A stretch of DNA of 12,140 bases, taken from a virus. Of this stretch, positions 111 through 12,140 are shown piece after piece. The stretch lies in the UHGV virus genome UHGV-1568604; one strand, given 5' to 3'. The notes below the pieces were generated by a model that made no database searches, was not told where the DNA came from, and saw nothing but the letters and a program-made list of their open reading frames with translations. The position numbers were made by a program, and so were the translations under genes. Each line of letters opens with the position of its first letter. The first letter of the stretch is position 1.

Positions 111-137
111 CAAATAAAAAAGCTCCCGAAGGGGCTT
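111..137 (-). terminator. Putative rho-independent terminator after the 169-aa gene
   Basis: Minus-strand read gives AAAGCCCC-UUCG-GGAGCUUU (imperfect stem, one mismatch or bulge) followed by a U-run (UUUUUUAUUUGG), placed 20 nt after the stop at 158. Confidence 0.5.
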
Positions 138-157
138 TAAAATACAAGGGATGACTC

Positions 158-667
158 TTAATCCCACTCAATCCAGTTGTAGACGATACGAAGTGACGGG
201 CGCACAGCGGCAGTCACATCTTCGGTACTAAAGTCGATTGCATCACTGTAGATTTTGCAGTCCAACATTTCAATTGTTGTAGCAGCTTTTGTCACAGCGT
301 TAACCCCGGAAGATTTGGATTCAGGGGTAGCAGCCATCGTGATATCAACATAGTCCTTCGCCGCAATGCGATCCTTAATGAACTGAAGAATATCGCCTTC
401 GATAGTCTCCACGCACTGGACCTGGATTTCCCCAGAGTTTCGAATTGGTCCGTGCTGGTTGAACTTCACACCATTCGGACCATAGTCCTCCACATTCTCT
501 CGAGTCATTTCAGGGATTTGCGACGTGCGAACCAGTACGCTGATATCTTCATGGCCTGCAAAAGTGAGCTGGAATTCAGAAGATACCAGTCGTTCGCCTT
601 TGACCGCGTTGGCAGTATAGCGGCCCTTAATAAATTTACGGTTTCCCTTAGTGTTATTGTGCCCCAT
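158..667 (-). CDS. Small phage tail protein, tail-tube or baseplate tube-initiator-like (169 aa)
   Basis: Intact ORF with AAAAGGA 6 nt upstream of ATG 667, tightly packed behind the preceding gene. Size and C-terminus (..LRIVYNWIEWD) recall T4 gp19-type tube-fold proteins. Family assignment is from recall, not a search. Confidence 0.6.
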   Translation of the reverse strand: MGHNNTKGNRKFIKGRYTANAVKGERLVSSEFQLTFAGHEDISVLVRTSQIPEMTRENVEDYGPNGVKFNQHGPIRNSGEIQVQCVETIEGDILQFIKDRIAAKDYVDITMAATPESKSSGVNAVTKAATTIEMLDCKIYSDAIDFSTEDVTAAVRPSLRIVYNWIEWD

Positions 668-678
668 ATAAAATCCTT

Positions 679-1260
679 TTACTGGAACGCCCGAACAATA
701 TCGGAGCTGTTATATATCGAAGAACCGGTCAACTGGAGGTTGACGGTGTTTTTCAGGAAATATCCATTACTGTCCCTTGGCGCATCGAGATCAAAACTTA
801 AGTCCTGGATGGCGACATCGGTGATGTTGATCCGGCGACCAATGTTTAGCGTCACGCGCTCCGGGATTCGACCACCAACATTGGCCGCTTTTAGTTCCGG
901 GCTAATCATGGCTGTCAACGCGGCGATAGCGCCTGAAACTTCAATGAATGGATTGTTCAAAGCAATGAAAGTTACAGGCAGCGTGAACGTCGGCGGTGTT
1001 CCCCCTTCCCAAACCATTAAGCTGTTCCAACGGGTCACCGACGTTGTTTCAGTACCAACCTGCGCAAAACCACTGAAAGCACCAGCAACAGACCCCATGG
1101 ACATACCGGTAAACGGCGCTTCCCAATTCTGGGCCATGTTCATTGCTGCCCCCTGGCTGATATATCCGGTAACCTGATACTGAGAGTTCGTTAAAGTAAC
1201 TTTCAGATATGGCGATACACCGTCAGCCTGGCTGTAAACCCCATAAGCTATAGGAGCCAT
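679..1260 (-). CDS. Phage structural or morphogenesis protein (193 aa), function unknown
   Basis: Intact ORF in the same co-oriented late-gene string. Its stop is 11 nt before the next gene start. Gly/Ser/Thr-rich with no transmembrane segment. Confidence 0.6.
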   Translation of the reverse strand: MAPIAYGVYSQADGVSPYLKVTLTNSQYQVTGYISQGAAMNMAQNWEAPFTGMSMGSVAGAFSGFAQVGTETTSVTRWNSLMVWEGGTPPTFTLPVTFIALNNPFIEVSGAIAALTAMISPELKAANVGGRIPERVTLNIGRRINITDVAIQDLSFDLDAPRDSNGYFLKNTVNLQLTGSSIYNSSDIVRAFQ

Positions 1261-1270
1261 TCAAGTTAAA

Positions 1271-1288
1271 GGCCGGAGTTCTCCGGCC
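1271..1288 (-). promoter_or_regulatory. Perfect 8-bp-stem hairpin between the Shine-Dalgarno sequence and the start codon of the 193-aa gene
   Basis: Minus-strand read: TAA-AGGAGGA-GGCCGGAG-AA-CTCCGGCC-TTTAACTTGA-ATG. The SD is about 29 nt from the ATG in linear sequence and only comes into range if the hairpin forms. Confidence 0.35.
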
Positions 1289-1295
1289 TCCTCCT

Positions 1296-2111
1296 TTAGC
1301 CAAGGCGCTTACGGCGCAGTTTCATTGACTTTTTGCGGGCAAGTTTTGCCGCGCCGGTCTGGGCTTTTCGACGCGCTTTTTTCAGCGCCGATTTTTGAGC
1401 CGCAGTCAGACGTTTTTTACGCAGGCGTTTACGGATGAGTTTGATCTCACCGTTACGAACAACCTTCTTAAATGATTCAGTCAGCATTTCATCAGAAGTG
1501 CCAGCAACAACAAACGCCGCTTCCAGTTCGTCGCGGTCGTCGCTATCTAAACCAGCGATAGAGGCACCAACATCAGCAGCTGCGTCGTCGTCTTCATCGT
1601 CAGCCAGTGCTTCGATCAGGTCATCATCTACACCGCATGCTGCGAGGAAGTCAGCAACATTTGCCCATGCTTCGTTATAGGCATCGTCCTGTTCTTCTGT
1701 AACTTCGGAGTCGTCGTCATCAGAGATACCAGCGATAGCCTGAACGAAACCATCAAGGGAGTCGAAAGTCAGATCACCGCTATCAGCCCAGGCGAAAACG
1801 GCGTCGGCCGCATCACTCAACGCATTCTGCATAGCACTTCGATTTGCAGCTTCCAGAATCATCTGGTGCGCCTGTTCGACGGTCCATTCTTTACCGTCTT
1901 TCCCTTCCAGGATTTGCTCAGGAGCCGTGGCAGATGGAGCGTTATCGTTAGTCTGTGCCGCCGGTTCCGGATTATTATTAATAACCGGATCTGTTGTCGG
2001 TTCGGCGCTTGCTCGGGCAGACTCCATCAACTGCACAGGATCAGAGTTCAAAGCGAAACGAGACAGTCCATTCCCCAAAAATGCCCCGGATTGAAAAAAG
2101 TTTTTGCTCAT
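1296..2111 (-). CDS. Phage protein with an acidic core and a poly-basic C-terminal tail (271 aa)
   Basis: AGGAA precedes ATG 2111 and overlaps the sheath stop. The middle third is D/E-rich (DDDDSEVTEEQDD, ADDEDDDAAAD) and the last ~55 residues are K/R-rich (KRLRKKRL, RRKRLG). It sits directly downstream of the sheath gene. Confidence 0.7.
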   Translation of the reverse strand: MSKNFFQSGAFLGNGLSRFALNSDPVQLMESARASAEPTTDPVINNNPEPAAQTNDNAPSATAPEQILEGKDGKEWTVEQAHQMILEAANRSAMQNALSDAADAVFAWADSGDLTFDSLDGFVQAIAGISDDDDSEVTEEQDDAYNEAWANVADFLAACGVDDDLIEALADDEDDDAAADVGASIAGLDSDDRDELEAAFVVAGTSDEMLTESFKKVVRNGEIKLIRKRLRKKRLTAAQKSALKKARRKAQTGAAKLARKKSMKLRRKRLG

Positions 2112-2120
2112 TGTATTTCC

Positions 2121-3710
2121 TTACTTAATAAGCAGCGGTACGCCCTGGATACGACGGGCTACGCCAGTCGGGCAGCAGGCCCAGACTACTTCCCATTTAT
2201 CGAATTCCGCCTGCGTAACTTTCAGCACATACGGTTCTGTACCGTCAGCATCAGGATCACGAGGAGCCACCAGAGCGCCGGAGGCGACAAAGCGATCCAA
2301 AAGTTTGGTCATCCCTTTAGTCAGGCCAGACTCAGTAATGCCGTCCGGGTTATGCTTCATCTGTCGGGCTAACTGGACAAAGAAACGGCTGATTGCGTTC
2401 ATCAGGGATGGGACGTGCTGGAAATGCAGATAGTTGTCCTGCGTGCAGCAAGTTAAAGCATCATCGATGATCATCTGGCCCGAAGTACCTACAGATACTT
2501 TATTGAGTCGGCCCTTGACCATAGCTTCTTCGTCCGGGGTGTCTTCAGGATACAGCGGCTGAAGTGATGCACGAGCAATGACGGCACGTTCTTCACCAGC
2601 CGGTGAGTAATGCCAACCGCCGACATCGGAGTTTTTCTTGACGCCACGAGCTATCGCCGCATACGCCGCGCCAGACAGACCGAAGATCACGCGGGATTGG
2701 GTCCATTTGTCTTTGCAGGAGAACGGGAAATGATAGACAGCACAGCTTACATAATCGGTACCAAGTAAACCGGTATCTTCAACAGCAGAGATCGCTTCCG
2801 TGTACGTCAATGTCGGTTTGACATCAAAGAAGCCATCAATCAGGCGATCAGAACAGATATTACCTAACGCAGTGATCGCCGCATTGTCATAGCAACCCAG
2901 GCCGAGAACAGCGGTGTACATGTACGGCGCATTGTTCAGCACTTTCACCGCACGCAGGTAAGCAGCAGTGGAAATGTTCGACTGATCGCCGTTGGTACCG
3001 CCAGTGAACGCCAGCGATTTTTTATTTGTTACTTTCGCCGTCGAAATCAGCTCTTCATTAACAACCGCGCGCAGATATTTAGAACGGGCTTCCAGAGCCG
3101 TAGGCAGATAACACAAGCGGCCCATGTCATCTTTCGCTTCTTCCGCCAAAGACACAGTGTGTGTCTCCAGGGTCGTTACCACACCGAGCGAAGTCGTCTG
3201 GGTCAGTTTTAAGAGGAAGCGTTCATTACCCGCGCTGTCCGCTGTTGCCGTTTCGATGGTTAACTCACGGGTAGGAGAAATACACGGATCACCATCATCA
3301 ACGTAGATAGCAAAGGCTTCGCCGCTATCAAGTTCAATTTCAGAACCGTATGGCAACGCACTGTAAGCCGGTTCGCCTGATTCATCGAACATAATAATCG
3401 GGAACTTCGCATCATCCGGAACAGCACGGACAACATAACCAGACGTTTGCTGAATAGCTTCGTACACATGGCGAATTGGTTCGAACTGTGAGCCGGAGGA
3501 CGGCTTCAGCGGTTCGCCGAGAACATCTTCGTAATTGGACTCAGTAACCGCAAGAACAGTAAACGGCTTGCCACGCGCAAATACGCCAATACCAGCCCAC
3601 AAGCTGCTATTTAATACAACACCGGTAGATAACGTCGCATCGGCATTGATCGGGCTAACAGCGACACCGGATGCATTACCTAATGACTGTTGAATTGAAT
3701 ATTGAGACAT
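2121..3710 (-). CDS. Contractile tail sheath protein (529 aa)
   Basis: Intact 529-aa ORF with AGGGAAAG before ATG 3710. Size and C-terminal region resemble myovirus sheath proteins, and it follows the capsid gene in a late operon. Likely equivalent to P1 gene 22, by recall only. Confidence 0.8.
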   Translation of the reverse strand: MSQYSIQQSLGNASGVAVSPINADATLSTGVVLNSSLWAGIGVFARGKPFTVLAVTESNYEDVLGEPLKPSSGSQFEPIRHVYEAIQQTSGYVVRAVPDDAKFPIIMFDESGEPAYSALPYGSEIELDSGEAFAIYVDDGDPCISPTRELTIETATADSAGNERFLLKLTQTTSLGVVTTLETHTVSLAEEAKDDMGRLCYLPTALEARSKYLRAVVNEELISTAKVTNKKSLAFTGGTNGDQSNISTAAYLRAVKVLNNAPYMYTAVLGLGCYDNAAITALGNICSDRLIDGFFDVKPTLTYTEAISAVEDTGLLGTDYVSCAVYHFPFSCKDKWTQSRVIFGLSGAAYAAIARGVKKNSDVGGWHYSPAGEERAVIARASLQPLYPEDTPDEEAMVKGRLNKVSVGTSGQMIIDDALTCCTQDNYLHFQHVPSLMNAISRFFVQLARQMKHNPDGITESGLTKGMTKLLDRFVASGALVAPRDPDADGTEPYVLKVTQAEFDKWEVVWACCPTGVARRIQGVPLLIK

Positions 3711-3725
3711 AACTTTCCCTGTTAT

Positions 3726-3743
3726 GCGCCCCGCACGGGGCGC
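3726..3743 (-). other. GC-rich hairpin in the capsid-sheath intergenic spacer
   Basis: GCGCCCC-GCAC-GGGGCGC (7-bp all-GC stem) between the capsid stop (3770) and sheath start (3710), with no U-tract after it on the minus strand. Confidence 0.35.
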
Positions 3744-3769
3744 TATGTTAAACGGAGAACTTCCCCTGA

Positions 3770-4951
3770 TTACTCAGAGTCACCGGCATCAATCGTGTCG
3801 CCGCTTATAAAGTTAAGCCCGCCTTTTTTGGCCATTGTCAGCGTTACACGAGTGAAGTAATCAGCGCCGTTGCGTGGGTGCATATCGTTGATAGCCGAAC
3901 CCCACAGCGTGGTACGGTTGACCAGCGCCGGAGTGGTCGGATGCTGGAACGGGATGGCCGGGACAGCATCACCAGTCACGAAGCCTGCTTTACCCGGATT
4001 TTCATCACGGACGTAGCACAGCACATCCATCGAGCTGAACTGAATGTTCTCTGTCGTTAAGTTCTTACAAATACCAGCAGGTACTTCGTACACTTTCACG
4101 TTACCGAACAGGGTACCGATGTAGTGAACATACGGAGTCTGGATATAGTCTTCGGCTGACTGGAAGAAATCCTTCGGCAACTGTTTGAAGAAAGATGCTG
4201 CATCAGCACCAGCAAACATCCCCATCGCACCAGAAGATTTAACGCGCTCAATAATGTCGCGATATACAGTCTGGAATTTGCCACGAATGATGGTTGCCCA
4301 TACATCAAAGGACTGGTTAACCGGCAGAGCGATGTCAAAGGTGTCGGTCGCAAGAGTACGCCAGATCATGATGCGAAGACGCAGCATATCCTGTTCATGA
4401 GACAGGTATTCCTTCAGGGTGCGGAACTGTAGGGAACCCAGGTCCAGACCAAATTCACGCTGTGCTTCATACGCCGCCTGTACCGTGTGCTCAGCCGCGA
4501 TAACGAACTGACTTGGGAACAGGGTGTATTTCTTCATTTCGTGGTTGATCAGCGGGATCAGCTCAGGAGCGGCTTCAATATTGATTTCCGTCTCAATTGC
4601 GATCTCAGTGCCTTTATCCGGCGCTTTGGAGAACGACAGGGCAATCTGACCAATGTTGTAGTTCAGAGAGCAGGTAACAGTGATTTGCTCACCAGCAGCA
4701 TTAGTAAACGAGTGAAGTAGGCTGCCGGAACCGTTATCAACAACAGACTTAATACGGTTAACGTAGATGTTAGTGCGACCTTTTCGGATTGGTACATTCT
4801 GGCCTTCGAAGTCTTCCATCTTGAAGGTTGCGGTTTTGCTGGTGCCATCGGAGCTTGCCAGCAGCATAAGAACCAAAAGATGAACCTGCCACGTTAAAGA
4901 CTTCATAGATGTCGGACTGGTCACGCGTAACCGGAATGAAGGTACACGCAT
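3770..4951 (-). CDS. Major capsid protein precursor, C-terminal part (frameshifted relative to the N-terminal part)
   Basis: Long ORF whose protein-like translation begins around ASSDGTSKTATFKMEDFEG (about 4858 downward). The first ~30 codons after the nominal ATG 4951 are out-of-frame read-through with no SD. Together with 4770..5411 it spans 1642 nt (3n+1). Confidence 0.7.
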   Translation of the reverse strand: MRVPSFRLRVTSPTSMKSLTWQVHLLVLMLLASSDGTSKTATFKMEDFEGQNVPIRKGRTNIYVNRIKSVVDNGSGSLLHSFTNAAGEQITVTCSLNYNIGQIALSFSKAPDKGTEIAIETEINIEAAPELIPLINHEMKKYTLFPSQFVIAAEHTVQAAYEAQREFGLDLGSLQFRTLKEYLSHEQDMLRLRIMIWRTLATDTFDIALPVNQSFDVWATIIRGKFQTVYRDIIERVKSSGAMGMFAGADAASFFKQLPKDFFQSAEDYIQTPYVHYIGTLFGNVKVYEVPAGICKNLTTENIQFSSMDVLCYVRDENPGKAGFVTGDAVPAIPFQHPTTPALVNRTTLWGSAINDMHPRNGADYFTRVTLTMAKKGGLNFISGDTIDAGDSE

Positions 4952-5411
4952 CAGCGGTAGCTGCCCCCAACTGAACAGGCAGGATCATCGCGAGGAATAA
5001 AGGCAGACGCATAACACCGTCAGAAACGCTCATCATCTCTGCTGCGACGGATTCCAGCATCGCTTTATTAGTGGCATCCATGCTATTGCGGGTGGACTCA
5101 ATCAGGCAGTTTTCCAGCGTCTGGTGGCAGGAGGCCAGAATTTCCGGACGCGGCATAGATTTATGTGCTGCGGCGTAGTCAGCCAGTGCACTTGCCCACG
5201 CTGTAGCGATTTGAGCGGTGGCATTATCAGAGATACCCGCAAAAACCGGGTCTTTACGTGCAGCTTCAAGGATAGATGCGGCACGCGCGGCATCATCTTT
5301 AATGAATTGGTTATCAGTACCGAACTGCGCAGTGCTTGCCCAGCCAAGCACAGCTTTAGAGCGTTTTGCGATATCTGCAATACGATTCTGGTATTCGCGT
5401 AAGTTACTCAA
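4770..5411 (-). CDS. Major capsid protein precursor, N-terminal part with delta/scaffold-like domain (frameshifted)
   Basis: AGGAAG sits 6 nt upstream of TTG 5411, giving MSNLREYQNRIADIAK...; the ORF track's TTG 5432 start would translate through that SD. Ala-rich helical N-terminus resembles a capsid delta domain. The frame stays protein-like to about ..GSSFGSYAAG (near 4857), then becomes R-rich junk until the stop at 4770. Confidence 0.65.
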   Translation of the reverse strand: MSNLREYQNRIADIAKRSKAVLGWASTAQFGTDNQFIKDDAARAASILEAARKDPVFAGISDNATAQIATAWASALADYAAAHKSMPRPEILASCHQTLENCLIESTRNSMDATNKAMLESVAAEMMSVSDGVMRLPLFLAMILPVQLGAATADACTFIPVTRDQSDIYEVFNVAGSSFGSYAAGKLRWHQQNRNLQDGRLRRPECTNPKRSH

Positions 5412-5426
5412 TTTACTCTTCCTTAA

Positions 5427-5491
5427 ACACAAGGCACTTGTGTGAATCCCTTTTCGGAAGAGATTTTATTGAAAGTCACTTGTTGACTTTC
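5427..5491 (-). promoter_or_regulatory. Candidate late promoter/operator upstream of the capsid gene
   Basis: Perfect inverted repeat GAAAGTCA-cttgt-TGACTTTC at 5471-5491 and a second one ACACAAG-gca-CTTGTGT at 5427-5443, the latter 4 nt upstream of the capsid SD. An A/T homopolymer tract lies at 5505-5519. Confidence 0.3.
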
Positions 5492-5544
5492 TCGTGACAA
5501 GCAATTTTTTTATTTTTTTCGGGAGTAGGGGAGGAAGGTAAAAT

Positions 5545-5635
5545 CCAAGGTGAAATCGTGGCGATTTCACCTTGAAATTTTAGAGGGATTTACTTTAAAA
5601 ACAGTAGGTTAATAGTGAAATTTGAATGGCGAAAG
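5545..5635. other. parS: parS partition site (P1-type box A heptamers and box B hexamers flanking an AT-rich IHF-like core)
   Basis: Box A-like heptamers (ATTTCAC/ATTTCAA) at 5550-5556, 5564-5570, 5572-5578 and 5615-5621. Box B (TCGCCA, seen as TGGCGA) at 5559-5564 and 5627-5632. AT-rich core about 5580-5612. Immediately downstream of parB. Motif identity is from recall of the P1 system. Confidence 0.75.
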
Positions 5636-5636
5636 T

Positions 5637-6638
5637 TTAAGGCTTCGGCTTTTTATCGAGGCTCTTTCTAAGGATATGCCCAATCATCCTGTCGAGTTCT
5701 TCCTGTAGCTCTTTTGAAAGTCGATTAAACTCATAAGAAAATGCACGGCCTTTCACGCGCTTCCTTGCAAAGCGATCCTTGTCCTCAAATTTCCATAATT
5801 CAGTAACTACGGACTTATCTTTAGAACCTTTATCCGTGAGTAGTGAGGCTTCCTTTGTTATCAAGCGCAGGATTTTATTTTTAACTTCATCTTCGGCCAT
5901 TTCTTCAATGGATAAGATGTCGTTTATTTCCGGGGATATGTTTTGAATAAGCTGATCAAACTCTAAATTCTTGTTCCCCATTTCGTCGCCAACAGCACAA
6001 AGCGTTTTGTAGTCCGAAAAGGTTAATTCCGACTGCACAGGGAAAAGGGCGACTAATTCTTCCGGAGCACTCGCTGCCTGGAGAGCACGCGTGACCTTCG
6101 CCTGAGACAGCCCTTCTTTGGCTGCAATATCCTTCTGACTCATCCCATCATTTTTCATTCGCATCAAACGCAGACCTATTTCTCGAATGCTGTGCTGCAA
6201 TGCTGTCTGAACGTCTTTCGCTAAATTTTGCGCTTCCTGAACGCTGATCTCCTGGTCCGTGACTAAAACCCGCAACCCTACGTTCTCTAAGATGGCAGAA
6301 GCTCGACGCCGGGAACCATCCAAAATTTCAATTTTCCCTGTAGCCCGTCTAACACCTATTGCAGGGTAAAATTGCTGATGCTTAATAGTGCTTCGGATAC
6401 TTTTTAATGATTTTGGCGTAAGAGATGTCTGGTCACGCCCGTTGTTATGCTGATCAACAAAGGTATCGCTTTCTACCTGGTTCGGAGGTATTACCTCTTC
6501 AATAAATGTGGCCTGGCGACCAGTTGATAACTTGAATACCTGCTCGACTCGATCGCCAGAGGCTGAAGAACTATCAAATCCGCTTAATATTGAAGGATTA
6601 AGGGTTCGCCCAATTGTTGGTCTGTTTTTCTTTGACAT
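5637..6638 (-). CDS. parB: Partition protein ParB (centromere-binding, 333 aa)
   Basis: 333-aa ORF directly downstream of parA with parS after its stop. Sequence is recognised as P1-type ParB from memory and includes a helix-turn-helix-like segment (MSQKDIAAKEGLSQAKVTRAL). Confidence 0.93.
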   Translation of the reverse strand: MSKKNRPTIGRTLNPSILSGFDSSSASGDRVEQVFKLSTGRQATFIEEVIPPNQVESDTFVDQHNNGRDQTSLTPKSLKSIRSTIKHQQFYPAIGVRRATGKIEILDGSRRRASAILENVGLRVLVTDQEISVQEAQNLAKDVQTALQHSIREIGLRLMRMKNDGMSQKDIAAKEGLSQAKVTRALQAASAPEELVALFPVQSELTFSDYKTLCAVGDEMGNKNLEFDQLIQNISPEINDILSIEEMAEDEVKNKILRLITKEASLLTDKGSKDKSVVTELWKFEDKDRFARKRVKGRAFSYEFNRLSKELQEELDRMIGHILRKSLDKKPKP

Positions 6639-6654
6639 GGGGGTTTCTTACTCC

Positions 6655-7851
6655 TCAGTTAGATCTGATAAATTCAATACGGTCAAAAACTGCTTTAGCA
6701 AAATCTTCCGCAGCAATTCGCGCGTTCTTCAATGCATCAGCACTACCAACATACGTTGCCGGGTTAGCTGAAATAACAGTGTCAAAAGACTCGCCGCAGC
6801 GTTCAAAACCGTCAAGGCGAGGGAGGACAACATCAAGCATATCCCCACCGAACACTTCTTTAGCCAGGCTATGGCAATACTTATGGTCTGCCTTGTTACT
6901 CAACTTGGACATAAAACCAATGTTAGTTGCAAGCTGACACTCGCAGCCTTCATCCGAAATGAGTTTCACCAACTCAGGAAGGCGGGCAACGTATTTAAGC
7001 GATGAGTGGAAATCAACCGTTGCAGGCGGCAGAGGTGTAAACAGTATATTGGCCGAGGCCAAAGCATTTTTCAGGAAGGCGTCAAGGTGAGGACCACTAT
7101 CAACGAGGATAAAGTCATAATCGCTCTTCAGCTTATCAATCACATTTTCTTTCAGGACTGCATGGATGTTCTGACCCGGTAGATGCTCATTGCACAGCTC
7201 TCTCCAATCGGATGCAATAAAGGCATCGTCAATCGACGCAGGCATAACGTCAACCCCAGGTACAACAGAAGGAACAATAAACTCCTCTAACAGCTCTTCA
7301 CGGCTTACATTCTGCAACATAGCCTGTGCAGATGTTGCGTTTACGATACCAATAGAGTGTTTATGGCTTAAAAACATCGTTGCTGAAGATTGCGGATCAA
7401 GGTCAATAACCAGAATCCTTAAATCTTCCATCAGAAGATGAGGATGAGCACGCATTGCATGCGCCAGAGAAACCGTCGATACAGTTTTTGACACACCGCC
7501 TTTAAGATTGGAGATGAAAATCACATACGCTTCGCTGTAGCGATCCCGGTATTTTGGCACTCCGCGATGTTCATATATGTCAATGATGTTCTGAATTGAC
7601 ATCGCATATTTCATTGAAGAGCCAGCAGGGCGTTTATCGAAAACATAACCCTTTTCTTCCATTTCACTTACGGCATAGTCAACGTTCGCACGAGTCAGTA
7701 GAGGCAATTTTGCCAGTGCCGCTTTCGCATAGACCTGGTAAAACTCGTTCGCGTGTAGCTCATCCTTTTGCAACTGTACTTGTTCAGTCAGAACATTGAG
7801 CATTCTATTTGCTCTTTGAGCAACCTTGTGAAGCTGGCTGGAATCACTCAT
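6655..7851 (-). CDS. parA: Partition ATPase ParA (type Ia, 398 aa)
   Basis: Deviant Walker A motif (NLKGGVSKT), Walker-type ATPase architecture and a long N-terminal regulatory extension typical of type Ia ParA. Recognised as P1-type ParA from memory. AAGGA precedes ATG 7851. Confidence 0.95.
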   Translation of the reverse strand: MSDSSQLHKVAQRANRMLNVLTEQVQLQKDELHANEFYQVYAKAALAKLPLLTRANVDYAVSEMEEKGYVFDKRPAGSSMKYAMSIQNIIDIYEHRGVPKYRDRYSEAYVIFISNLKGGVSKTVSTVSLAHAMRAHPHLLMEDLRILVIDLDPQSSATMFLSHKHSIGIVNATSAQAMLQNVSREELLEEFIVPSVVPGVDVMPASIDDAFIASDWRELCNEHLPGQNIHAVLKENVIDKLKSDYDFILVDSGPHLDAFLKNALASANILFTPLPPATVDFHSSLKYVARLPELVKLISDEGCECQLATNIGFMSKLSNKADHKYCHSLAKEVFGGDMLDVVLPRLDGFERCGESFDTVISANPATYVGSADALKNARIAAEDFAKAVFDRIEFIRSN

Positions 7852-7985
7852 CGAAAGCCATCCTTTATGCTGTATTTTTGAATTTAATTAAAAATGCTGC
7901 ATAAAATAATAATGTATGCGTAGATGCTTGTACATAGCATTCTCTGCATGTTTGGTTCATTTTGCACGATTGAGAGTTACAAGGA
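7852..7985 (-). promoter_or_regulatory. par operon promoter/operator region
   Basis: AT-rich ~130-bp leader upstream of parA with near-palindromic elements (ATGCTTGTACATAGCAT, TTTAATTAAA). Type Ia ParA proteins autoregulate at such operators (established knowledge); exact promoter not mapped. Confidence 0.4.
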
Positions 7986-7991
7986 GGGCAC

Positions 7992-8012
7992 AAAAAAGCC
8001 CCGTTCAGGGGC
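7992..8012 (-). terminator. Rho-independent terminator after the 269-aa gene
   Basis: Minus-strand read GCCCC-UGAAC-GGGGC followed by UUUUUUG, beginning 8 nt after the stop codon at 8020-8022. It insulates the par promoter from upstream transcription. Confidence 0.7.
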
Positions 8013-8019
8013 ATCAGTG

Positions 8020-8829
8020 TTATTTGCTAAGAGCAGCGAATAATCGTTCGAAATCGATAGTATCTATAGCACGCGTAAGCGCCGGAAGTTCAGCCTCAAA
8101 GTACCCGTGTCGATCGTAAAAGAAGGGACCGAAGAGCGAGGCATGTTGGATTCTACTTCGCCCCAGCCCGGACACACAGTTAAGCCCATTACCGGCTAAA
8201 AGGCTAAAAAACTTCTCTGGATTATCGTGGTAAAGCTGGGAATCAATGGTGGCGGTTAACTCTTCCATAGGGAAGCACACCCGCCCTGTATCCCAGGGAT
8301 ATTTAGTCCGAAGCATAAACATTGCTTTCAGCAATTCACATTGAGCGCGGATCGCGTCCGGTTCATAGCCAGATATGGAGACATAAGCCACGTCCCTCAT
8401 TCCTGCGTCATCTTTGAAAGTCACGATAGAAGTAACATCCAGCTCTTTTTCGAAAGAGCAAGCAGCATCTACTGGACGCTGAAGTAAATCATTCGACTTA
8501 ATGCGCTCGAGAATCCCTCCCCACATATCATTTAGATATTCGATATGAGCCAAAACCTTATCAAGACACTCTCGTGTAAACCATTCAGTATGCCCGCCAC
8601 CGACGCTTTTCTCCCACGGCGCATTCCAGGGGAAAAAGGTTGCGTGTAAAGCCCGCTCAAGATTAACCATTGCCAAACGCGTACCACGATAGACCCGTGA
8701 AAGCGCAAAATCGGGACTCACTTGTAGCCCTTTAAACCGTGCCAATGGACCACATGAAATGCCGATTTTAAAAGTATCTCCGTTCTCTGGCACCAGAACG
8801 TAGAGGTAGTGTTGTTTCTCTTCTTGCAT
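8020..8829 (-). CDS. T5orf172/GIY-YIG-like nuclease-domain protein with an uncharacterised C-terminal domain (269 aa)
   Basis: N-terminal ~110 aa carry the T5orf172/GIY-YIG-like pattern (YLYVLV..., FKIGIS, LERALHATF, TEWF). C-terminal ~150 aa have no feature I recognise. Single gene with its own terminator, between the iteron field and the par promoter. Confidence 0.75.
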   Translation of the reverse strand: MQEEKQHYLYVLVPENGDTFKIGISCGPLARFKGLQVSPDFALSRVYRGTRLAMVNLERALHATFFPWNAPWEKSVGGGHTEWFTRECLDKVLAHIEYLNDMWGGILERIKSNDLLQRPVDAACSFEKELDVTSIVTFKDDAGMRDVAYVSISGYEPDAIRAQCELLKAMFMLRTKYPWDTGRVCFPMEELTATIDSQLYHDNPEKFFSLLAGNGLNCVSGLGRSRIQHASLFGPFFYDRHGYFEAELPALTRAIDTIDFERLFAALSK

Positions 8830-8863
8830 ATCAATACCACTGCTTGATGAGAACCGCGCAAAT

Positions 8864-9119
8864 GTTGACTATGCGCGAAGGTTAATGTGAATAGTTGACT
8901 ATGCGCGATGTGACTACAGTCAAAAGTTGACTGTAGTCGATTTAACTCCACCAAAGATCGACTATGTAAGATATTGTCGGGAGAAACGTTGACTATACGC
9001 GATGAAATGCCCCTAAAAGCCATCTCAATAGCGACTTGCAGAATATTGACGCCAGCAAAAATCCACCAGCGTCAACGAATGTCGCCTATAGTCAACTTCT
9101 CGCTATCGCATATAGTCAA
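8864..9119. repeat. Iteron field downstream of repA (incA-like copy-control locus)
   Basis: Direct copies of GTTGACTAT(G/A)CGCGA at 8864-8878, 8894-8908 and 8988-9002. Variants at 8926-8940 and 8957-8971. Inverted copies at 8910-8923, 9083-9097 and 9106-9119. Same core as the origin iterons. Confidence 0.8.
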
Positions 9120-9121
9120 TA

Positions 9122-10006
9122 TTATGGATTGCGCTTATGGATCTGGAAGCCGATTTTCCTGCCGTTTTTTATCTCTGAAAATTTAAGATATTCAATAGCT
9201 TCCAAATCTTTCATGGCTTTTCTGATAACGCTATTTTGCACGCTAACGGATGATTTGAGATTAAGCCTCGCTCTAAGGCGCTCAATGCTGACAGGTGCCG
9301 GGTTGGCGGGTAGAGCCTCAAAGAATGTATACAGTACCTTGGCCGTCTCTTTGCGCCCTAGTTTATCCAGCATCTTCAGCTTCAGGATTCGCTTATAGTC
9401 AACATAGTAAAGTTCAGATAGCTGTTTCTGCGGCTGGATCTCGATAACATCAAGCTCGGTATTCAGGCTGCTATATGCCAACAAGTTGACGTTAATGTTA
9501 TTGAGATGACCTTTTGCCGCCGGGAAGCGGAATTTGACAACTGTCTGCTGAATGCGTGTCAGAGAGTCATCAATACTTTTACGGAACGCCTTTGAAAGGC
9601 GCTTACGTGGATAGCCGCATCGATCGGCAAACTCGGAGAATGGCAGGGTGATTATGCCGTCATCATCAGGTGCGTAGTCAAACAACGCGGAGGTTATGCC
9701 CACCCACACCTTAAAATCAGTATCCATATCCAGGCGTGGACCATGAATTTCAATTCCCTCATAGCCTTCCTGCTCAACAATTTTGAGGCTTGATAGTTCT
9801 TCAGTTGCGTTCGTTGTGTTTGTTGTAACTGACGATCCGCGACGTAGCGCCACATTGGTAGATTTTAAGGTTGGCACAAACACACCTAAGCGCAACAAAG
9901 CGATGGGTTGTATAGTGCTGTTGTTATTGGGCTTCAGGCTGTGGATTTCTCCTGTATTTCCTGCAACTTCTTCAACGCTAAGGAAGCCTTTACTTTCTTC
10001 CGGCAT
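9122..10006 (-). CDS. repA: Iteron-binding replication initiator RepA (Rep_3 family, 294 aa from ATG 10006)
   Basis: Flanked by iteron arrays on both sides. Conserved initiator segments are present (QPIALLRLGVFVP, GPRLDMDTDFKVW). GGAGA lies 7 nt upstream of ATG 10006; the ORF track's TTG 10042 has no SD. Confidence 0.88.
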   Translation of the reverse strand: MPEESKGFLSVEEVAGNTGEIHSLKPNNNSTIQPIALLRLGVFVPTLKSTNVALRRGSSVTTNTTNATEELSSLKIVEQEGYEGIEIHGPRLDMDTDFKVWVGITSALFDYAPDDDGIITLPFSEFADRCGYPRKRLSKAFRKSIDDSLTRIQQTVVKFRFPAAKGHLNNINVNLLAYSSLNTELDVIEIQPQKQLSELYYVDYKRILKLKMLDKLGRKETAKVLYTFFEALPANPAPVSIERLRARLNLKSSVSVQNSVIRKAMKDLEAIEYLKFSEIKNGRKIGFQIHKRNP

Positions 10007-10087
10007 CACGGTTTCTCCATGTGTGGCGCGGCCTGACGTCAATTTGGATGGCTGTTATCAACAGCTGTGAATATTCAGACTCTAAAA

Positions 10088-10187
10088 TCGCTTACAGTCA
10101 ATGTTTCTGTCGCGTATAGTCAACAATAAATCGCGTGCAGTCAACAATAAATCGTGCACAGTCAACATAAAATCGCGTATAGTCAAT
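10088..10187. repeat. Origin iterons: five direct repeats with ~21.5-bp phasing
   Basis: TCGC(G/T)TRNAGTCAA(C) at 10088-10101, 10110-10124, 10131-10145, 10152-10166 and 10174-10187 (spacing 22/21/21/22 bp), immediately upstream of repA. An inverted repeat GCTGTT-atc-AACAGC at 10051-10065 contains the DnaA-box-like TTATCAACA. Confidence 0.85.
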
Positions 10188-10190
10188 GTT

Positions 10191-10298
10191 GATCCCATTT
10201 CAGGCCAGTAATGACGCGGCTTACAGCGATCCGGGATCTTCTTTGGATCTTCCTAGGTTCTCTTTAGGATCTGTTTATTGGATCTATGCTGTGGATAA
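10191..10298. other. Origin auxiliary region: GATC (Dam) cluster plus consensus DnaA box
   Basis: GATC at 10191, 10228, 10235, 10246, 10268 and 10281, four of them in GGATCT contexts. Perfect DnaA box TTATCCACA (seen as TGTGGATAA) at 10290-10298. Same architecture as P1-type oriR, by recall. Confidence 0.75.
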
Positions 10299-10299
10299 G

Positions 10300-10327
10300 T
10301 TGAATAAACCGGCCAACAAAGCCGGTT
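10300..10327 (-). terminator. Putative rho-independent terminator after the 130-aa gene
   Basis: Minus-strand read AACCGGC-UUUGUUG-GCCGGUU followed by UAUUCAACUU, about 15 nt after the stop at 10342, just before the origin. Confidence 0.55.
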
Positions 10328-10341
10328 GGAAGGAAGTCATA

Positions 10342-10734
10342 TTATTCTACGCTTTCGATAAGAAGACCATGTTCATAACATTTAAGCTCATCGCCTTCGT
10401 ACAGGAATTGGTATCCAATACCACCATTTTCATGGACATTAGGGAATAACTCATAACTCACTGAAGAGCAAATCACACCAATGCAGCGATCAACGCCTTC
10501 TCGTTCTTCAGTGCTGAAAAAATCCTCTTCGGTAAGGACATGAGTACATTGCTCATCAGCATAGGTCGGAAATACATGCTCGATGCAATCCGGGTGTTTT
10601 AAACCAAGCTGATCGGCAAGCTCGAAAGCATGACGGTATTGTTCAGATCCTGGCTTGCCAACAGTGATGTGCTCAATTTTGTAGATTGAAGTTGCTTTGT
10701 TGATAGTTTGCTTTACTGTTACTTTATCAGACAT
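10342..10734 (-). CDS. Hypothetical cytoplasmic protein (130 aa), Cys/His-containing
   Basis: AAGGGA lies 5 nt upstream of ATG 10734, which is 9 nt after the lipoprotein stop (translational coupling plausible). No transmembrane segment or signal peptide. Position matches where I recall P1 upfA (tentative). Confidence 0.65.
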   Translation of the reverse strand: MSDKVTVKQTINKATSIYKIEHITVGKPGSEQYRHAFELADQLGLKHPDCIEHVFPTYADEQCTHVLTEEDFFSTEEREGVDRCIGVICSSVSYELFPNVHENGGIGYQFLYEGDELKCYEHGLLIESVE

Positions 10735-10745
10735 AAAAATCCCTT

Positions 10746-11078
10746 TTAGTTACCTCTGATAGCGCGGTTGTAATCATTAACGTTGCGATTCTTCCTGTTA
10801 ATCCCCATCAGCATCGTTTCTGTATCGAGGATATACGCTGGCAGATCATCAAAATATTCACTGCTAAACTCTGGCATCCTGCACATAAATGCACTTTTGG
10901 GGGCAGGGTGGTTAACCTTTGTCGGCGTCGGCGTTAAATTCGCTGATCGACTGCCGGAGCAACCGCTGAGTGTCAGCAGGAATGCGCTGGCGAACATTAC
11001 CCGCCGCAACCAGTTGTTTCTGAACTTCAGCTTTTCGTTCCATTTGCCTGTCAGCATATTTGGCTTGTTCTGATTCAT
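10746..11078 (-). CDS. Lipoprotein, Rz1-like outer-membrane spanin candidate (110 aa)
   Basis: AGGAAG lies 6 nt upstream of ATG 11078. Lipobox LTLSGC, then a Pro/Thr-rich mature region (LTPTPTKVNHPAP). Its first 167 nt overlap the 3' end of the upstream gene in another frame. Could correspond to P1 mlp (tentative). Confidence 0.7.
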   Translation of the reverse strand: MNQNKPNMLTGKWNEKLKFRNNWLRRVMFASAFLLTLSGCSGSRSANLTPTPTKVNHPAPKSAFMCRMPEFSSEYFDDLPAYILDTETMLMGINRKNRNVNDYNRAIRGN

Positions 11079-11334
11079 TTTTCACTTCCTGGCTGTGAAA
11101 ATGTTGCTCTGCTTTGTTCATCGTCTCAATGGTCTGGTTAAGATCCATTATTGACTTATCACGTTCCTTAACAGCCTGATCAAGACTGCCAATTTTCTCC
11201 ATGGCTTGCTTTAGCTGATGACGTTCCCATGCAAACCCAGCACCAACAAGTGCGCAAATCAGAACAAGAACACCAGTAGCAGCAAGTTTCTCCTTCAAAG
11301 ACAAAGCTGTTTTTAACGTAGAAAAGAATGACAT
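10912..11334 (-). CDS. Rz-like inner-membrane spanin candidate (140 aa from ATG 11334)
   Basis: AGGAGG lies 5 nt upstream of ATG 11334 (MSFFSTLK...). One N-terminal transmembrane helix (LAATGVLVLICALVGAGFAW), then a charged helical region. C-terminal stretch (VAAGNVRQRIPADTQRLLRQS) resembles lambda Rz by recall. Could correspond to P1 ppfA (tentative). Confidence 0.72.
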   Translation of the reverse strand: MSFFSTLKTALSLKEKLAATGVLVLICALVGAGFAWERHQLKQAMEKIGSLDQAVKERDKSIMDLNQTIETMNKAEQHFHSQEVKNESEQAKYADRQMERKAEVQKQLVAAGNVRQRIPADTQRLLRQSISEFNADADKG

Positions 11335-11373
11335 GTCTTCCTCCTGAAGAAAAATTATCAATGAAGTCCTTTG

Positions 11374-11910
11374 TTACTGTGCCGCTTTGTTTAATTCATC
11401 AAGAACAGAATCAGGAACCAAAGCGGCAACTGCGCTGGCTGTGCTGACCTTATTTGCTGATGCTTCCGCAAGCGCGGTACCGATAGCATGGTTATAAGCA
11501 GTTATGGCTACGTTGGCGCTTTCATTCGCTCGTTCATACTGCTGTTGTAACGCAGTTGTGGGCGTTGTTGTCTGGTTGAAAACAACCCCAAACTGTTCAG
11601 TTGCTACTTTCAGAGATTCAATTTGCTCTTCTGTTAGTGCTGGTGGGGGAGTGGCAGTGCCGCCGCCTGAACCAGAGCCTGACGAGCTTCCTGAGCCAGT
11701 GTTAAGGGTCTGGTTAATCTCCCCCATAGCAGCGACTAAACTTGATGTATTAAGCGCGTTAACAGCGTCCTCAAGCGATTTAGTAATATTCACATCACCA
11801 ATGGCAATAGAGATCGGCAGTTCTGAAACTTCTCGCTCATTAGCACGGCAGTAAACATCCCAACCAATATCGAGTTGAAGCAGCATTGACAGATCTGCAT
11901 AACCAGCCAA
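11374..11910 (-). CDS. Hypothetical two-domain protein with a Gly/Ser-rich linker (178 aa); start uncertain
   Basis: ORF from TTG 11910 with only a weak SD. The frame stays open and protein-like for 29 more codons upstream to a TAA at 11998-12000, with no canonical start there. Central linker is GSGSSSGSGSGGGTATPPP. Confidence 0.5.
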   Translation of the reverse strand: MAGYADLSMLLQLDIGWDVYCRANEREVSELPISIAIGDVNITKSLEDAVNALNTSSLVAAMGEINQTLNTGSGSSSGSGSGGGTATPPPALTEEQIESLKVATEQFGVVFNQTTTPTTALQQQYERANESANVAITAYNHAIGTALAEASANKVSTASAVAALVPDSVLDELNKAAQ

Positions 11911-12140
11911 CAGGTCCGCGTGCTTAGTTGCCAGTTCTCCAATGTTCGTTAAGTCGGTTGTGGTTGTTCTTATCGTTGAAACGGTGATGCTGCCAACTTA
12001 CTGATTTAGTGTATGATGGTGTTTTTGAGGTTCTCCAGTGGCTTCTGTTTCTATCAGCTGTCCCTCCTGTTCAGCTACTGACGGGGTGGTGCGTAACGGC
12101 AAAAGCACTGCCGGACATCAGCGCTATCTCTGCTCTCACT

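Follow-up and report, generated by a model that had tools for sequence, protein, structure and literature searches.

The closest described relatives of the locus analysed here are the ppfA and mlp genes of phage P1, and it is Summer et al. 2007 who, going by the credit given in a 2022 paper (PMC9025707), named the two genes as the P1 spanins. In P1 these predicted spanin genes lie in an operon that is unlinked to the other lysis genes (PMC9025707). SpaninDataBase lists the system under the family name 'P1' and in the architecture class ovl, with gp064 as the i-spanin (36 residues in the N-terminal part and 104 in the periplasmic one, without periplasmic Cys) and gp063 as the o-spanin (a signal of 39 aa and a mature part of 71 aa, with one periplasmic Cys; PMC6139136 supplement). 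In RefSeq the name 'Rz-like spanin' is borne by P1_gp063. A periplasmic Cys is available in 507 of the 528 spanin systems of Kongari et al. 2018 (PMC6139136). Following the criteria for two-component spanins of Summer 2007 and Kongari 2018, we looked for an i-spanin with a single N-terminal membrane helix and a helical periplasmic domain of two segments joined by a linker, for an o-spanin with a lipoprotein signal, a lipobox Cys and a +2 residue fit for the outer membrane, for an o-spanin gene embedded in, overlapping or following the i-spanin gene, for at least one periplasmic Cys allowing a homotypic disulfide, and for late expression.

The window, that is, the whole 12,140-nt stretch of DNA that was analysed, belongs to a P1-like phage-plasmid of E. 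coli, with 94-99% identity to P1 outside a swapped replicon. Positions 10300-11950 share 95-99% identity with Punavirus records, P1 and P7 among them, and several of these records annotate the pair as Rz/Rz1 or as Rz-like spanin. High identity (95-99% at the DNA level over 1.65 kb) and the shared order upfC-upfB-ppfA-mlp-upfA-oriR place the pair in the orthologous group of P1 ppfA/mlp; the overlap, the start sites, the flanking upfB and upfA and the orientation toward oriR are the same. What differs from P1 is that the adjacent replicon (iterons and repA) has been exchanged for a 42%-identical replacement, that a gene for a T5orf172-domain protein has been added, and that upfB is cut by IS1. 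The features of the region are as follows.

10083-10298, no strand: plasmid origin, with five 21-bp-spaced iterons (10083-10207), a GATC cluster (10191-10284) and a DnaA box, TGTGGATAA (10290-10298)
10313-10329, minus strand: weak terminator-like hairpin with a T-rich tail, just past the upfA stop and before the origin (1 found versus 2.4 expected by chance, not significant alone)
10342-10734, minus strand: upfA, 130 aa, 96% identity to P1 UpfA, phrog_1453, last gene of the co-oriented block
10746-11078, minus strand: mlp, o-spanin candidate, precursor of 110 aa, 97.3% identity to P1 Mlp (3 amino-acid differences)
10970-10959, within mlp: lipobox LSGC of Mlp with Cys40 and Ser at +2; the mature part runs for 71 aa from Cys40, and its second Cys is residue 66
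11078-10962, minus strand: pre-Cys region of Mlp (residues 1-39), a strongly basic leader
10912-11078, minus strand: overlap of ppfA (frame 0) and mlp (frame +1), 167 nt, the 'ovl' class of SpaninDataBase
10912-11334, minus strand: ppfA, i-spanin candidate, 140 aa, 98.6% identity to P1 PpfA (2 amino-acid differences)
11004-10978, within ppfA: break in the C-terminal part of PpfA (residues 111-119), followed by a helix (120-139)
11286-11230, within ppfA: membrane helix of PpfA (residues 17-35), preceded by cytoplasmic residues 1-16 and continued by a periplasmic helix to residue 110
11085-11090, minus strand: Shine-Dalgarno motif AGGAAG of mlp, within the ppfA coding sequence, 6 nt upstream of the ATG at 11078
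11340-11345, minus strand: Shine-Dalgarno motif AGGAGG of ppfA, 5 nt upstream of the ATG, the same motif being marked in SpaninDataBase
11374-11982, minus strand: upfB, the block's upstream gene, reduced by IS1 to its 3' part; the homology to P1 ends at 11982
11983-12140, no strand: left end of IS1 (an annotated IS1 family transposase lies under the match), dividing ppfA-mlp from everything upstream

The two overlapping minus-strand reading frames are thus located where the preliminary description had put them, and their transcription does run toward the origin. The pair does not lie directly beside the origin, as had been claimed, because upfA sits between the mlp stop (10746) and the origin; two relatives (L006 and L007) are without upfA. 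The right half of the origin is homologous to P1 oriR. In addition to upfA and the upfB remnant (an ORF of 178 aa versus 281 aa in P1, matching positions 85-263 of phrog_1559), the window carries bplB, pmgG, 21, 22, 23, parB, parA, the T5orf172-domain gene and repA, and none of the genes in its 12,140 nt encodes a holin or endolysin. The detachment of the pair from a lysis cassette, also noted in the preliminary description, had previously been stated for P1 by others. A promoter and terminator scan of 9900-12140 gave counts no higher than those of shuffled controls.

PpfA contains a single hydrophobic segment, residues 17-35, which is its best 19-residue Kyte-Doolittle segment (mean 2.35). 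In the AlphaFold2 model (mean pLDDT 73.8, pTM 0.27), this segment is part of one continuous helix (13-110), which is followed by the break and by the C-terminal helix, suggesting a helical periplasmic domain made of two segments and a linker. The hydropathy and the predicted structure therefore agree with the single N-terminal transmembrane helix and the long helices that had been described, and the protein has the one N-terminal membrane helix of an i-spanin, from which we infer an orientation with the C-terminus in the periplasm. PpfA has no Cys outside the membrane helix. Its C-terminal 15 residues are 73-87% conserved among relatives with an overall identity of about 60%. Searches against solved structures gave no matches.

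Mlp starts inside the 3' end of ppfA in another frame and carries the predicted features of an o-spanin, i.e. a lipoprotein signal and a lipobox whose sequence, LSGC, fits the consensus [LVI][ASTVI][GAS]C, followed by a +2 residue compatible with outer-membrane localization, so the earlier reading of this frame as a lipoprotein gene stood. Pro, Thr or Ser make up 44% of the first 25 mature residues. Cys66, at position 27 of the mature part, occurs in all relatives and aligns with a Cys of P2 LysC, and it could provide the periplasmic Cys for a homotypic disulfide. The PROSITE lipoprotein rule demands that the Cys fall within the first 35 residues, and with 39 residues before the Cys, Mlp exceeds what is usual for a lipoprotein signal. 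The unusual length, pointed out in the preliminary description too, had already been flagged by the SpaninDataBase curators, whose entry for P1 Mlp gives LipoP cleavage at residue 39, no PROSITE call and the remark "Too long signal sequence" (PMC6139136 supplement).

The long basic leader looks real, because six diverged relatives retain the upstream ATG and its ribosome-binding site. All seven aligned P1-like sequences and the more distant L010 have an unchanged CAGGA-G motif with an ATG 6-7 nt downstream. Start codon and ribosome-binding site are kept down to 30% PpfA identity, and among the possible mlp starts only the upstream one, an ATG preceded by AGGA(A/G)G, is conserved in all sequences. 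Two shorter starts were rejected as the main start. In relatives, Phe or Leu stands in the place of Met28, and a start at Met28 would lack a basic n-region. The codon found 16 residues ahead of the Cys has no ribosome-binding site and reads TTG or ATG in six of eight sequences and AGG in the other two; a minor second start is conceivable. It seems very improbable that the strongly basic segment of 38-39 residues before the lipobox is a functional device, e.g. for delayed or gated export or for making two products from two starts, and not a by-product of the overlap.

Comparison with other spanin systems suggests that the pair belongs to the P2 LysB/LysC-like family and not to that of lambda Rz. 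P2 LysB and LysC share the overlapped architecture and have similar lengths (141 and 96 aa versus 140 and 110 aa here). By BLASTP, Mlp is 37% identical to P2 LysC over 68 aa (E = 4e-8), the alignment taking in the signal peptide and two conserved Cys, that of the lipobox and a second one, as well as the conserved motif C(R/P)MP, and P2 LysC matches the Mlp family phrog_30284 at 5.4e-4, with reciprocal weak PHROG matches between the Mlp and LysC families. Mlp is a homologue of LysC. A direct homology between PpfA and LysB could not be demonstrated (BLASTP E = 61; hhalign profile against P2 LysB alone E = 0.074; 19.5 bits against the NCBIfam LysB model TIGR03495, whose cut-off is 92.75), and the link between the two is at the PHROG level only. 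That is, PpfA matches phrog_89 ('Rz-like spanin') over its full length at 1.1e-25, P2 LysB matches phrog_89 at 5.8e-61, and Mlp matches phrog_30284 at 1.4e-76 and phrog_456 at 4.2e-5, these matches being partly circular because P1 proteins are probably among the sequences from which the PHROGs were built, and phrog_89 may contain P1-type members. The profile search for spanin families that had been proposed gave these matches to phrog_89 and phrog_456, whereas the curated models miss the pair, Pfam having no match and TIGR03495 one below its cut-off. Two further differences separate the pair from P2: lysB and lysC belong to the P2 lysis cassette, where they immediately follow holin Y, endolysin K and lysA, whereas the P1-type pair is unlinked, and the signal peptide of LysC begins opposite residue 24 of Mlp, which has about 23 extra basic N-terminal residues.

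The lambda-Rz-like stretch that had been perceived at the C-terminal end of PpfA was not borne out, as the likeness amounts to a match of 14/35 at residues 91-123, not at the end, with a BLASTP E-value of 0.37. Neither protein matches the Pfam Rz or Rz1 models at E <= 1, and with respect to the PHROGs of lambda Rz and Rz1, phrog_13 is absent from the PpfA matches and phrog_3198 reaches only E = 0.059 against Mlp. By these comparisons, membership of the lambda Rz/Rz1 sequence family seems not to apply. The likeness to lambda instead concerns the topology of the components and the presumed mechanism, i.e. a type II protein of the inner membrane, made of two helical segments, paired with a small, Pro-rich lipoprotein of the outer membrane whose gene uses the +1 frame. 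The lambda system differs in that Rz1 is fully embedded in Rz, whereas mlp extends 166 nt past ppfA, and in that Rz has two periplasmic Cys and PpfA none; mature Rz1 measures 40 aa, compared with 71 aa for mature Mlp. T4 PseT.3/PseT.2 resembles the pair in having spanin genes unlinked to the holin and endolysin genes, an i-spanin without periplasmic Cys and a disulfide capacity in the o-spanin only (PMC6139136), but its genes are separated and do not overlap, its o-spanin has two Cys, and no sequence relation to the present pair was found.

Taken together, the pair is very probably the two-component spanin of a P1-like phage-plasmid. The present analysis establishes the P1 orthology, the membrane and lipoprotein signals, the overlap, the homology of Mlp and LysC and the conservation of both frames and starts in diverged relatives, while the spanin designation and the late transcription in P1 come from the literature. 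The spanin reading of the preliminary description is upheld by this evidence, together with the SpaninDataBase listing and the anatomy of the i-spanin. The mechanism would be that of the lambda Rz/Rz1 model, from which we borrow lipidation, outer-membrane sorting, complex formation, disulfide and membrane fusion by analogy. The N-terminal helix would anchor PpfA in the inner membrane, with the long helical domain reaching into the periplasm, and Mlp would be exported, lipidated at Cys40 and, in view of the Ser at +2, presumably sorted to the outer membrane. The two proteins may then join via their conserved C-terminal regions to form a periplasm-spanning complex, for which Cys66 of Mlp could supply a homodimer disulfide. 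Lysis would end with the collapse of these complexes and the fusion of the inner with the outer membrane, after degradation of the cell wall by the P1 holin and the SAR endolysin Lyz.

The reading of mlp as a chance open reading frame within and after ppfA would agree with the fact that gene callers often miss it (28 clusters for Mlp versus 76 for PpfA) and that several records annotate merely a fragment of 44-52 aa, but it is refuted by the comparative data and can practically be dismissed. The frame begins 256 nt into ppfA and is open in eight of eight sequences, with the overlapped layout kept in the seven other than the present one. In six diverged P1-like elements, which keep both the upfC-upfB-ppfA-mlp synteny and the overlap, the frame is conserved at 51-75% identity, and the lipobox, Cys66 and the C-terminal half are conserved, the identity being highest (60-82%) in the part outside the ppfA overlap. 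In the most distant relative, Mlp is 51% identical versus 30% for PpfA. Together with the conserved ribosome-binding site and ATG and the homology to P2 LysC, this argues for mlp as a real gene, as judged from sequence conservation. Very unlikely, though less so, is that the pair serves the plasmid-prophage state instead of lysis, e.g. in envelope exclusion or surface modification like the lipoproteins Bor and TraT, and is kept beside the maintenance region because of expression in the lysogen. It is true that all P1-like elements examined have the pair within the par-rep maintenance neighbourhood and that it stays with the origin even after a replicon swap, that its promoter annotation in P1 is limited to the predicted sigma-70 promoters P1ppfA and P2ppfA, and that CRISPRi in P1 has scored both genes as non-essential for plaque formation (EOP of 1.3 and 1.2 for ppfA, 0.24 and 0.19 for mlp; PMC10695390). 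In the same CRISPRi study lambda Rz was scored essential in one assay (PMC10695390), and spanins are dispensable for lysis in shaken laboratory cultures (PMC9025707). Against a role in the prophage state, published RNA-seq of P1vir shows upfC, upfB, ppfA, mlp and upfA rising from a log FC of 4.1-5.6 at 10 min to 10.5-11.2 at 30 min (ppfA from 5.6 to 11.2, mlp from 4.1 to 10.5), with the same late kinetics as lydA, lydB, lyz, 22 and 23 (PMC8201110 Table S1). The pair is thus of the late class, like the genes for lysis and morphogenesis and in contrast to parA, parB and repA; at 10 min the log FC of parA, hrdC and dmt has already reached 8.8-9.5 (PMC8201110 Table S1). Moreover, the layout of an i-spanin with an overlapped o-spanin is specific to spanins, Mlp is homologous to an o-spanin of the P2 lysis cassette, and PADLOC defence-system models gave no matches.

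The late kinetics pertain to the P1 operon and not to the present IS1-interrupted copy, and it is quite possible, if somewhat short of an even chance, that the genes are true spanin genes but an unused relic in an element that makes no capsids and whose late transcription was severed by IS1. The major-capsid gene 23 is frameshifted by a 65-bp deletion between 9-bp repeats, which is missing from all 40 sampled relatives, and IS1 is inserted in upfB at 11982/11983, thereby cutting the block 650 bp upstream of ppfA. Since the late kinetics cover the whole upfC-upfA block, they suggest, without showing it, that a promoter lies on the upstream side of the IS1 site. The P1 annotation has no late promoter for the block, and a search with the -22 box of P1 LP23 gave only chance-level hits with 2 mismatches, one of them at 11372, just upstream of ppfA. 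On the other hand, both reading frames, both ribosome-binding sites and 42 bp with the predicted P1ppfA promoter are intact and identical to P1, the gene 23 deletion could be an assembly error, and IS1 can give outward transcription. A query with the IS1 end matched 4973 of 5426 genomes, but the junction itself, i.e. a query coverage of at least 80%, is shared by only 26. The element carrying the window is probably defective, and because it looks so, the pair may be idle in this copy although its genes are intact; the IS1 cut and the frameshift in gene 23 make its use in this element doubtful. Such disuse concerns this copy and not the identity of the genes, and is compatible with the pair being the spanin of a P1-like phage-plasmid.

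The spanin reading, the overlapped layout, the separation from the lysis genes and the over-long signal have all been published or catalogued before, and with the pair in both the literature and a curated database, its discovery value is small. The useful outcomes are corrective, in that the window is recognized as a P1-like phage-plasmid, the pair is grouped with P2 LysB/LysC and the upstream mlp start gains comparative support. The conservation of that start with its ribosome-binding site, and the late kinetics of the P1 operon as taken from published RNA-seq, are small additions. As to distribution, a HMMER family search against 1.84 billion representatives gave only 34 hits, all of them P1-like or low-complexity coiled coils and none placed in a classical lysis cassette, and a viral-contig scan with P0085 gave no matches. 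PpfA is present in 631 PLSDB plasmids, and its cytoplasmic N-terminus of 16 residues is unusually well conserved.

By alignment, the window comes from a P1-like phage-plasmid of E. coli. Bacteriophage P1 (NC_005856) matches it at 94-99% identity over 116-7950 and 10212-11982, the 1.65 kb around the ppfA/mlp pair are 95-99% identical to P1, P7, SJ46, RCS47 and other Punavirus records, and many E. coli plasmids of 80-120 kb match the entire window at ~99.5%. Every gene lies on the minus strand, in the following order:

158-667, minus, bplB
679-1260, minus, pmgG
1296-2111, minus, gene 21
2121-3710, minus, gene 22 (sheath)
3770-5432, minus, gene 23 (major capsid, broken)
5637-6638, minus, parB
6655-7851, minus, parA
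8020-8829, minus, T5orf172-domain gene
8859-9120, iterons
9122-9982, minus, repA
10083-10298, origin
10342-10734, minus, upfA
10746-11078, minus, mlp
10912-11334, minus, ppfA
11374-11982, minus, upfB remnant
11983-12140, IS1 end

Both spanin ORFs were present exactly as in the preliminary description (140 aa for ppfA, 110 aa for mlp), as was their overlap, which amounts to 167 nt, the mlp start lying in the +1 frame after 256 nt of ppfA. The pair had also been placed beside the replication origin, which did not hold since upfA stands between them in the window. In the loci L006 and L007 (4423-4978), from P1-like plasmids that have diverged (their query protein, P0053, carries the source name 'ppfA [Klebsiella aerogenes]'), upfA is missing, so that ppfA and mlp directly adjoin the origin/repA region.

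The ppfA gene carries AGGAGG 5 nt 5′ of its ATG, and its product, the candidate i-spanin, has a single hydrophobic segment by hydropathy (residues 17-35). The AlphaFold2 model of PpfA, built with ten homologues as input (mean pLDDT 73.8), predicts two helices, at residues 13-110 and 120-139, interrupted by a break at 111-119 (AAGNVRQRIP). Mlp, the candidate o-spanin, contains the lipobox LSGC with Cys40 and a Ser at +2, followed by a mature part that opens Pro/Thr/Ser-rich and has a second Cys at residue 66. A side observation concerns the cytoplasmic residues 1-16 of PpfA (window 11287-11334; MSFFSTLKTALSLKEK), which are 81-88% conserved in relatives of ~60% overall identity, whereas the adjoining membrane helix is only ~30% conserved; such a weighting towards the cytoplasmic N-terminus is unusual for an i-spanin.

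The spanin reading is right, and every element of it was already on record for the P1 orthologues, from which PpfA differs by two residues and Mlp by three. That is, P1 ppfA and mlp have been designated spanins, for which Bednarek et al. credit a 2007 paper by Summer et al. (PMC9025707), and SpaninDataBase (Kongari et al. 2018, supplement, PMC6139136) contains a P1 row with architecture 'ovl' and family 'P1', listing gp064 as i-spanin with AGGAGG marked and gp063 as o-spanin with AGGA marked, a signal of 39 aa and a mature protein of 71 aa, and one periplasmic Cys for the o-spanin against none for the i-spanin ('one in TMD'). P1_gp063 is entered in RefSeq as 'Rz-like spanin', and the pair appears as Rz/Rz1 in several P1-like GenBank records. 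The observation is real and correctly interpreted, but it had already been catalogued for this classic phage. The introduction of PMC9025707 labels ppfA as o-spanin and mlp as i-spanin; the sequences say the reverse, the lipoprotein being Mlp.

Comparison with relatives shows that the overlapping mlp frame is a genuine gene. The frame is open, the lipobox and Cys66 are kept, and mlp conservation is highest outside the ppfA overlap (60-82% identity) in six diverged elements of P1 type, namely Cronobacter phage JK004, a Salmonella Newport plasmid, a 94-kb IMG/VR contig and three metagenomic/SRA contigs. Mlp retains 51% identity in the most remote relative, versus only 30% for PpfA. The best-conserved periplasmic regions are the C-terminal 15 residues of PpfA and residues 56-110 of Mlp.

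The unusually long lipoprotein signal was borne out as well, and is the same oddity that the SpaninDataBase curators had flagged ('Too long signal sequence'), noting a LipoP cleavage at the 39th position and no Prosite match (PMC6139136). As P2 LysC begins at the position of Mlp residue 24 in the alignment, we examined whether the upstream ATG is the true mlp start. A CAGGA(A/G)G motif with the mlp-frame ATG 6-7 nt downstream is present in 7/7 aligned P1-like sequences and in the more distant L010, and the N-terminal extension is always basic (net charge ~+4 to +6). The shorter candidates fail as main start: Met28 is not conserved among the relatives, and the position 16 residues ahead of the Cys varies between ATG (three sequences), TTG (three) and AGG (two), with no ribosome-binding site preceding it in any compared sequence. 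The annotated upstream start is therefore the best supported, and, with this start conserved and the alternatives not, the long basic n-region appears to be genuine; a minor internal start in addition to the upstream ATG is still conceivable. The simplest reading is that the start is fixed where the Gln-Glu codons of ppfA (CAG-GA-) happen to supply a ribosome-binding site, the sole demand on the extension being that it stay basic.

The family assignment is less close to lambda than had been described. The 'lambda-Rz-like stretch' at the PpfA end turned out to be a match of only 14/35 residues, located mid-protein (E = 0.37). The lambda family could be rejected for the pair, as the Pfam Rz and Rz1 models matched neither protein and lambda Rz/Rz1 belong to phrog_13/phrog_3198, whereas PpfA and Mlp match other PHROGs. 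PpfA matches phrog_89 (1.1e-25), as does P2 LysB (5.8e-61), and Mlp matches phrog_30284, a small family of its own, and phrog_456, the LysC family. The solid, non-circular family link is that of Mlp to P2 LysC (37% identity, 68 residues, E = 4e-8), in an alignment that runs from the hydrophobic core of the signal through the lipobox Cys and the Pro-rich tether to the second Cys (C-R-M-P versus C-P-M-P). Direct PpfA-LysB homology was not demonstrable (BLASTP E = 61, hhalign E = 0.074), and PpfA scored 19.5 bits against TIGR03495 (cut-off 92.75). When 1.84 billion representative proteins were searched with a PpfA profile, 34 matched, all P1-like or spurious coiled coils, which points to a narrow family.

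The pair most likely works by the membrane-fusion model established for lambda Rz/Rz1 (PMC6139136, PMC9025707). PpfA would be anchored in the inner membrane, its helical domain reaching into the periplasm, and Mlp would be lipidated and then sorted to the outer membrane, the two making contact via their C-terminal parts and Mlp Cys66 forming a homodimer disulfide; once the murein has been destroyed by the SAR endolysin Lyz and the holins of P1, the complexes would fuse both membranes. With one Cys in the o-spanin and none in its partner, the pair fits the general spanin rule of at least one periplasmic Cys. Transcript timing in P1vir supports a late role: by RNA-seq, upfC, upfB, ppfA, mlp and upfA show log fold-changes of 4.1-5.6 at the 10-min time point and 10.5-11.2 at the 30-min one, values indistinguishable from those of genes 22 and 23, lydA (5.2 to 11.8), lydB (3.4 to 11.0) and lyz (6.1 to 11.3), while the neighbouring parA, parB, hrdC and dmt have reached 8.8-9.5 as early as 10 min (PMC8201110). 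Separation from holin and endolysin genes is not unusual, given that T4 spanin genes are likewise unlinked to theirs (PMC6139136) and P1 lysis genes are known as scattered (PMC9025707). CRISPRi knock-down in P1 gave EOPs of 1.3 and 1.2 for ppfA and 0.24 and 0.19 for mlp, both scored non-essential (PMC10695390), which fits spanins being dispensable in ordinary laboratory conditions and is not positive evidence. The P1 annotation holds no late promoter for the upfC-upfA block, only two predicted sigma-70 promoters within upfB, and a crude search with the LP23 -22 box yielded 2-mismatch matches of a quality also met elsewhere by chance. One of these resembles the P1 LP23 -22 box plus -10: directly 5′ of the ppfA ribosome-binding site, and identical in P1, lies AAAGGACTT-N6-TAATTT (11352-11372, minus), which holds GATAAT at 11359-11354.

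In this copy, upfB is interrupted at 11982/11983 by the left end of IS1 (11983-12140), at a distance of ~650 bp upstream from ppfA, leaving an upfB ORF of 178 aa versus 281 aa in P1; a match to the junction covering at least 80% of the 241-nt query occurs in only 26/5426 complete E. coli genomes. If the late transcript starts upstream of upfC, the pair would here be severed from it. The 42 bp surrounding the predicted P1ppfA promoter are identical to P1, and predicted P2ppfA has diverged (34/45 positions). Compared with P1, gene 23 has lost 65 bp by a deletion at ~4858-4866, between 9-bp near-repeats (CCAGCAGCA, CCACCAGCA); the resulting frameshift splits this major capsid gene into ORFs of 393 and 220 aa. 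The 65 bp are retained in 40/40 PLSDB relatives sampled across the ranking, and the deletion reflects either a defective prophage or an assembly error. Unless it is the latter, the frameshift would make the element incapable of producing capsids, and the spanin pair of this copy is then intact but probably idle.

Within the otherwise P1-identical backbone the replicon has been replaced: blastn gave no P1 match for window 7951-10211, which carries repA, the origin iterons and the incA-like iterons, and the RepA encoded there shares only 42% identity with its P1 counterpart. Its iterons (TCGCGTATAGTCAAC) differ in type from those of P1: five, at 21-bp spacing, occupy 10083-10207, others lie in inverted orientation at 8859-9004 and 9080-9120, and a single copy falls within repA at 9387. 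The right breakpoint (~10212) falls inside the origin, between the iterons and the still P1-like GATC/DnaA-box half. Between the par operon and the incA-like iterons, where P1 has no gene, lies an extra one (8020-8829, minus) for a 269-aa protein with an N-terminal T5orf172/GIY-YIG-like domain (Pfam PF10544 at 6.9e-6; phrog_2876 at 1.4e-194). The diverged locus L009 encodes a relative at the same position (38% identity over the N-terminal 116 aa), and the gene may resemble homing endonucleases and be carried along as a passenger with the replicon module.
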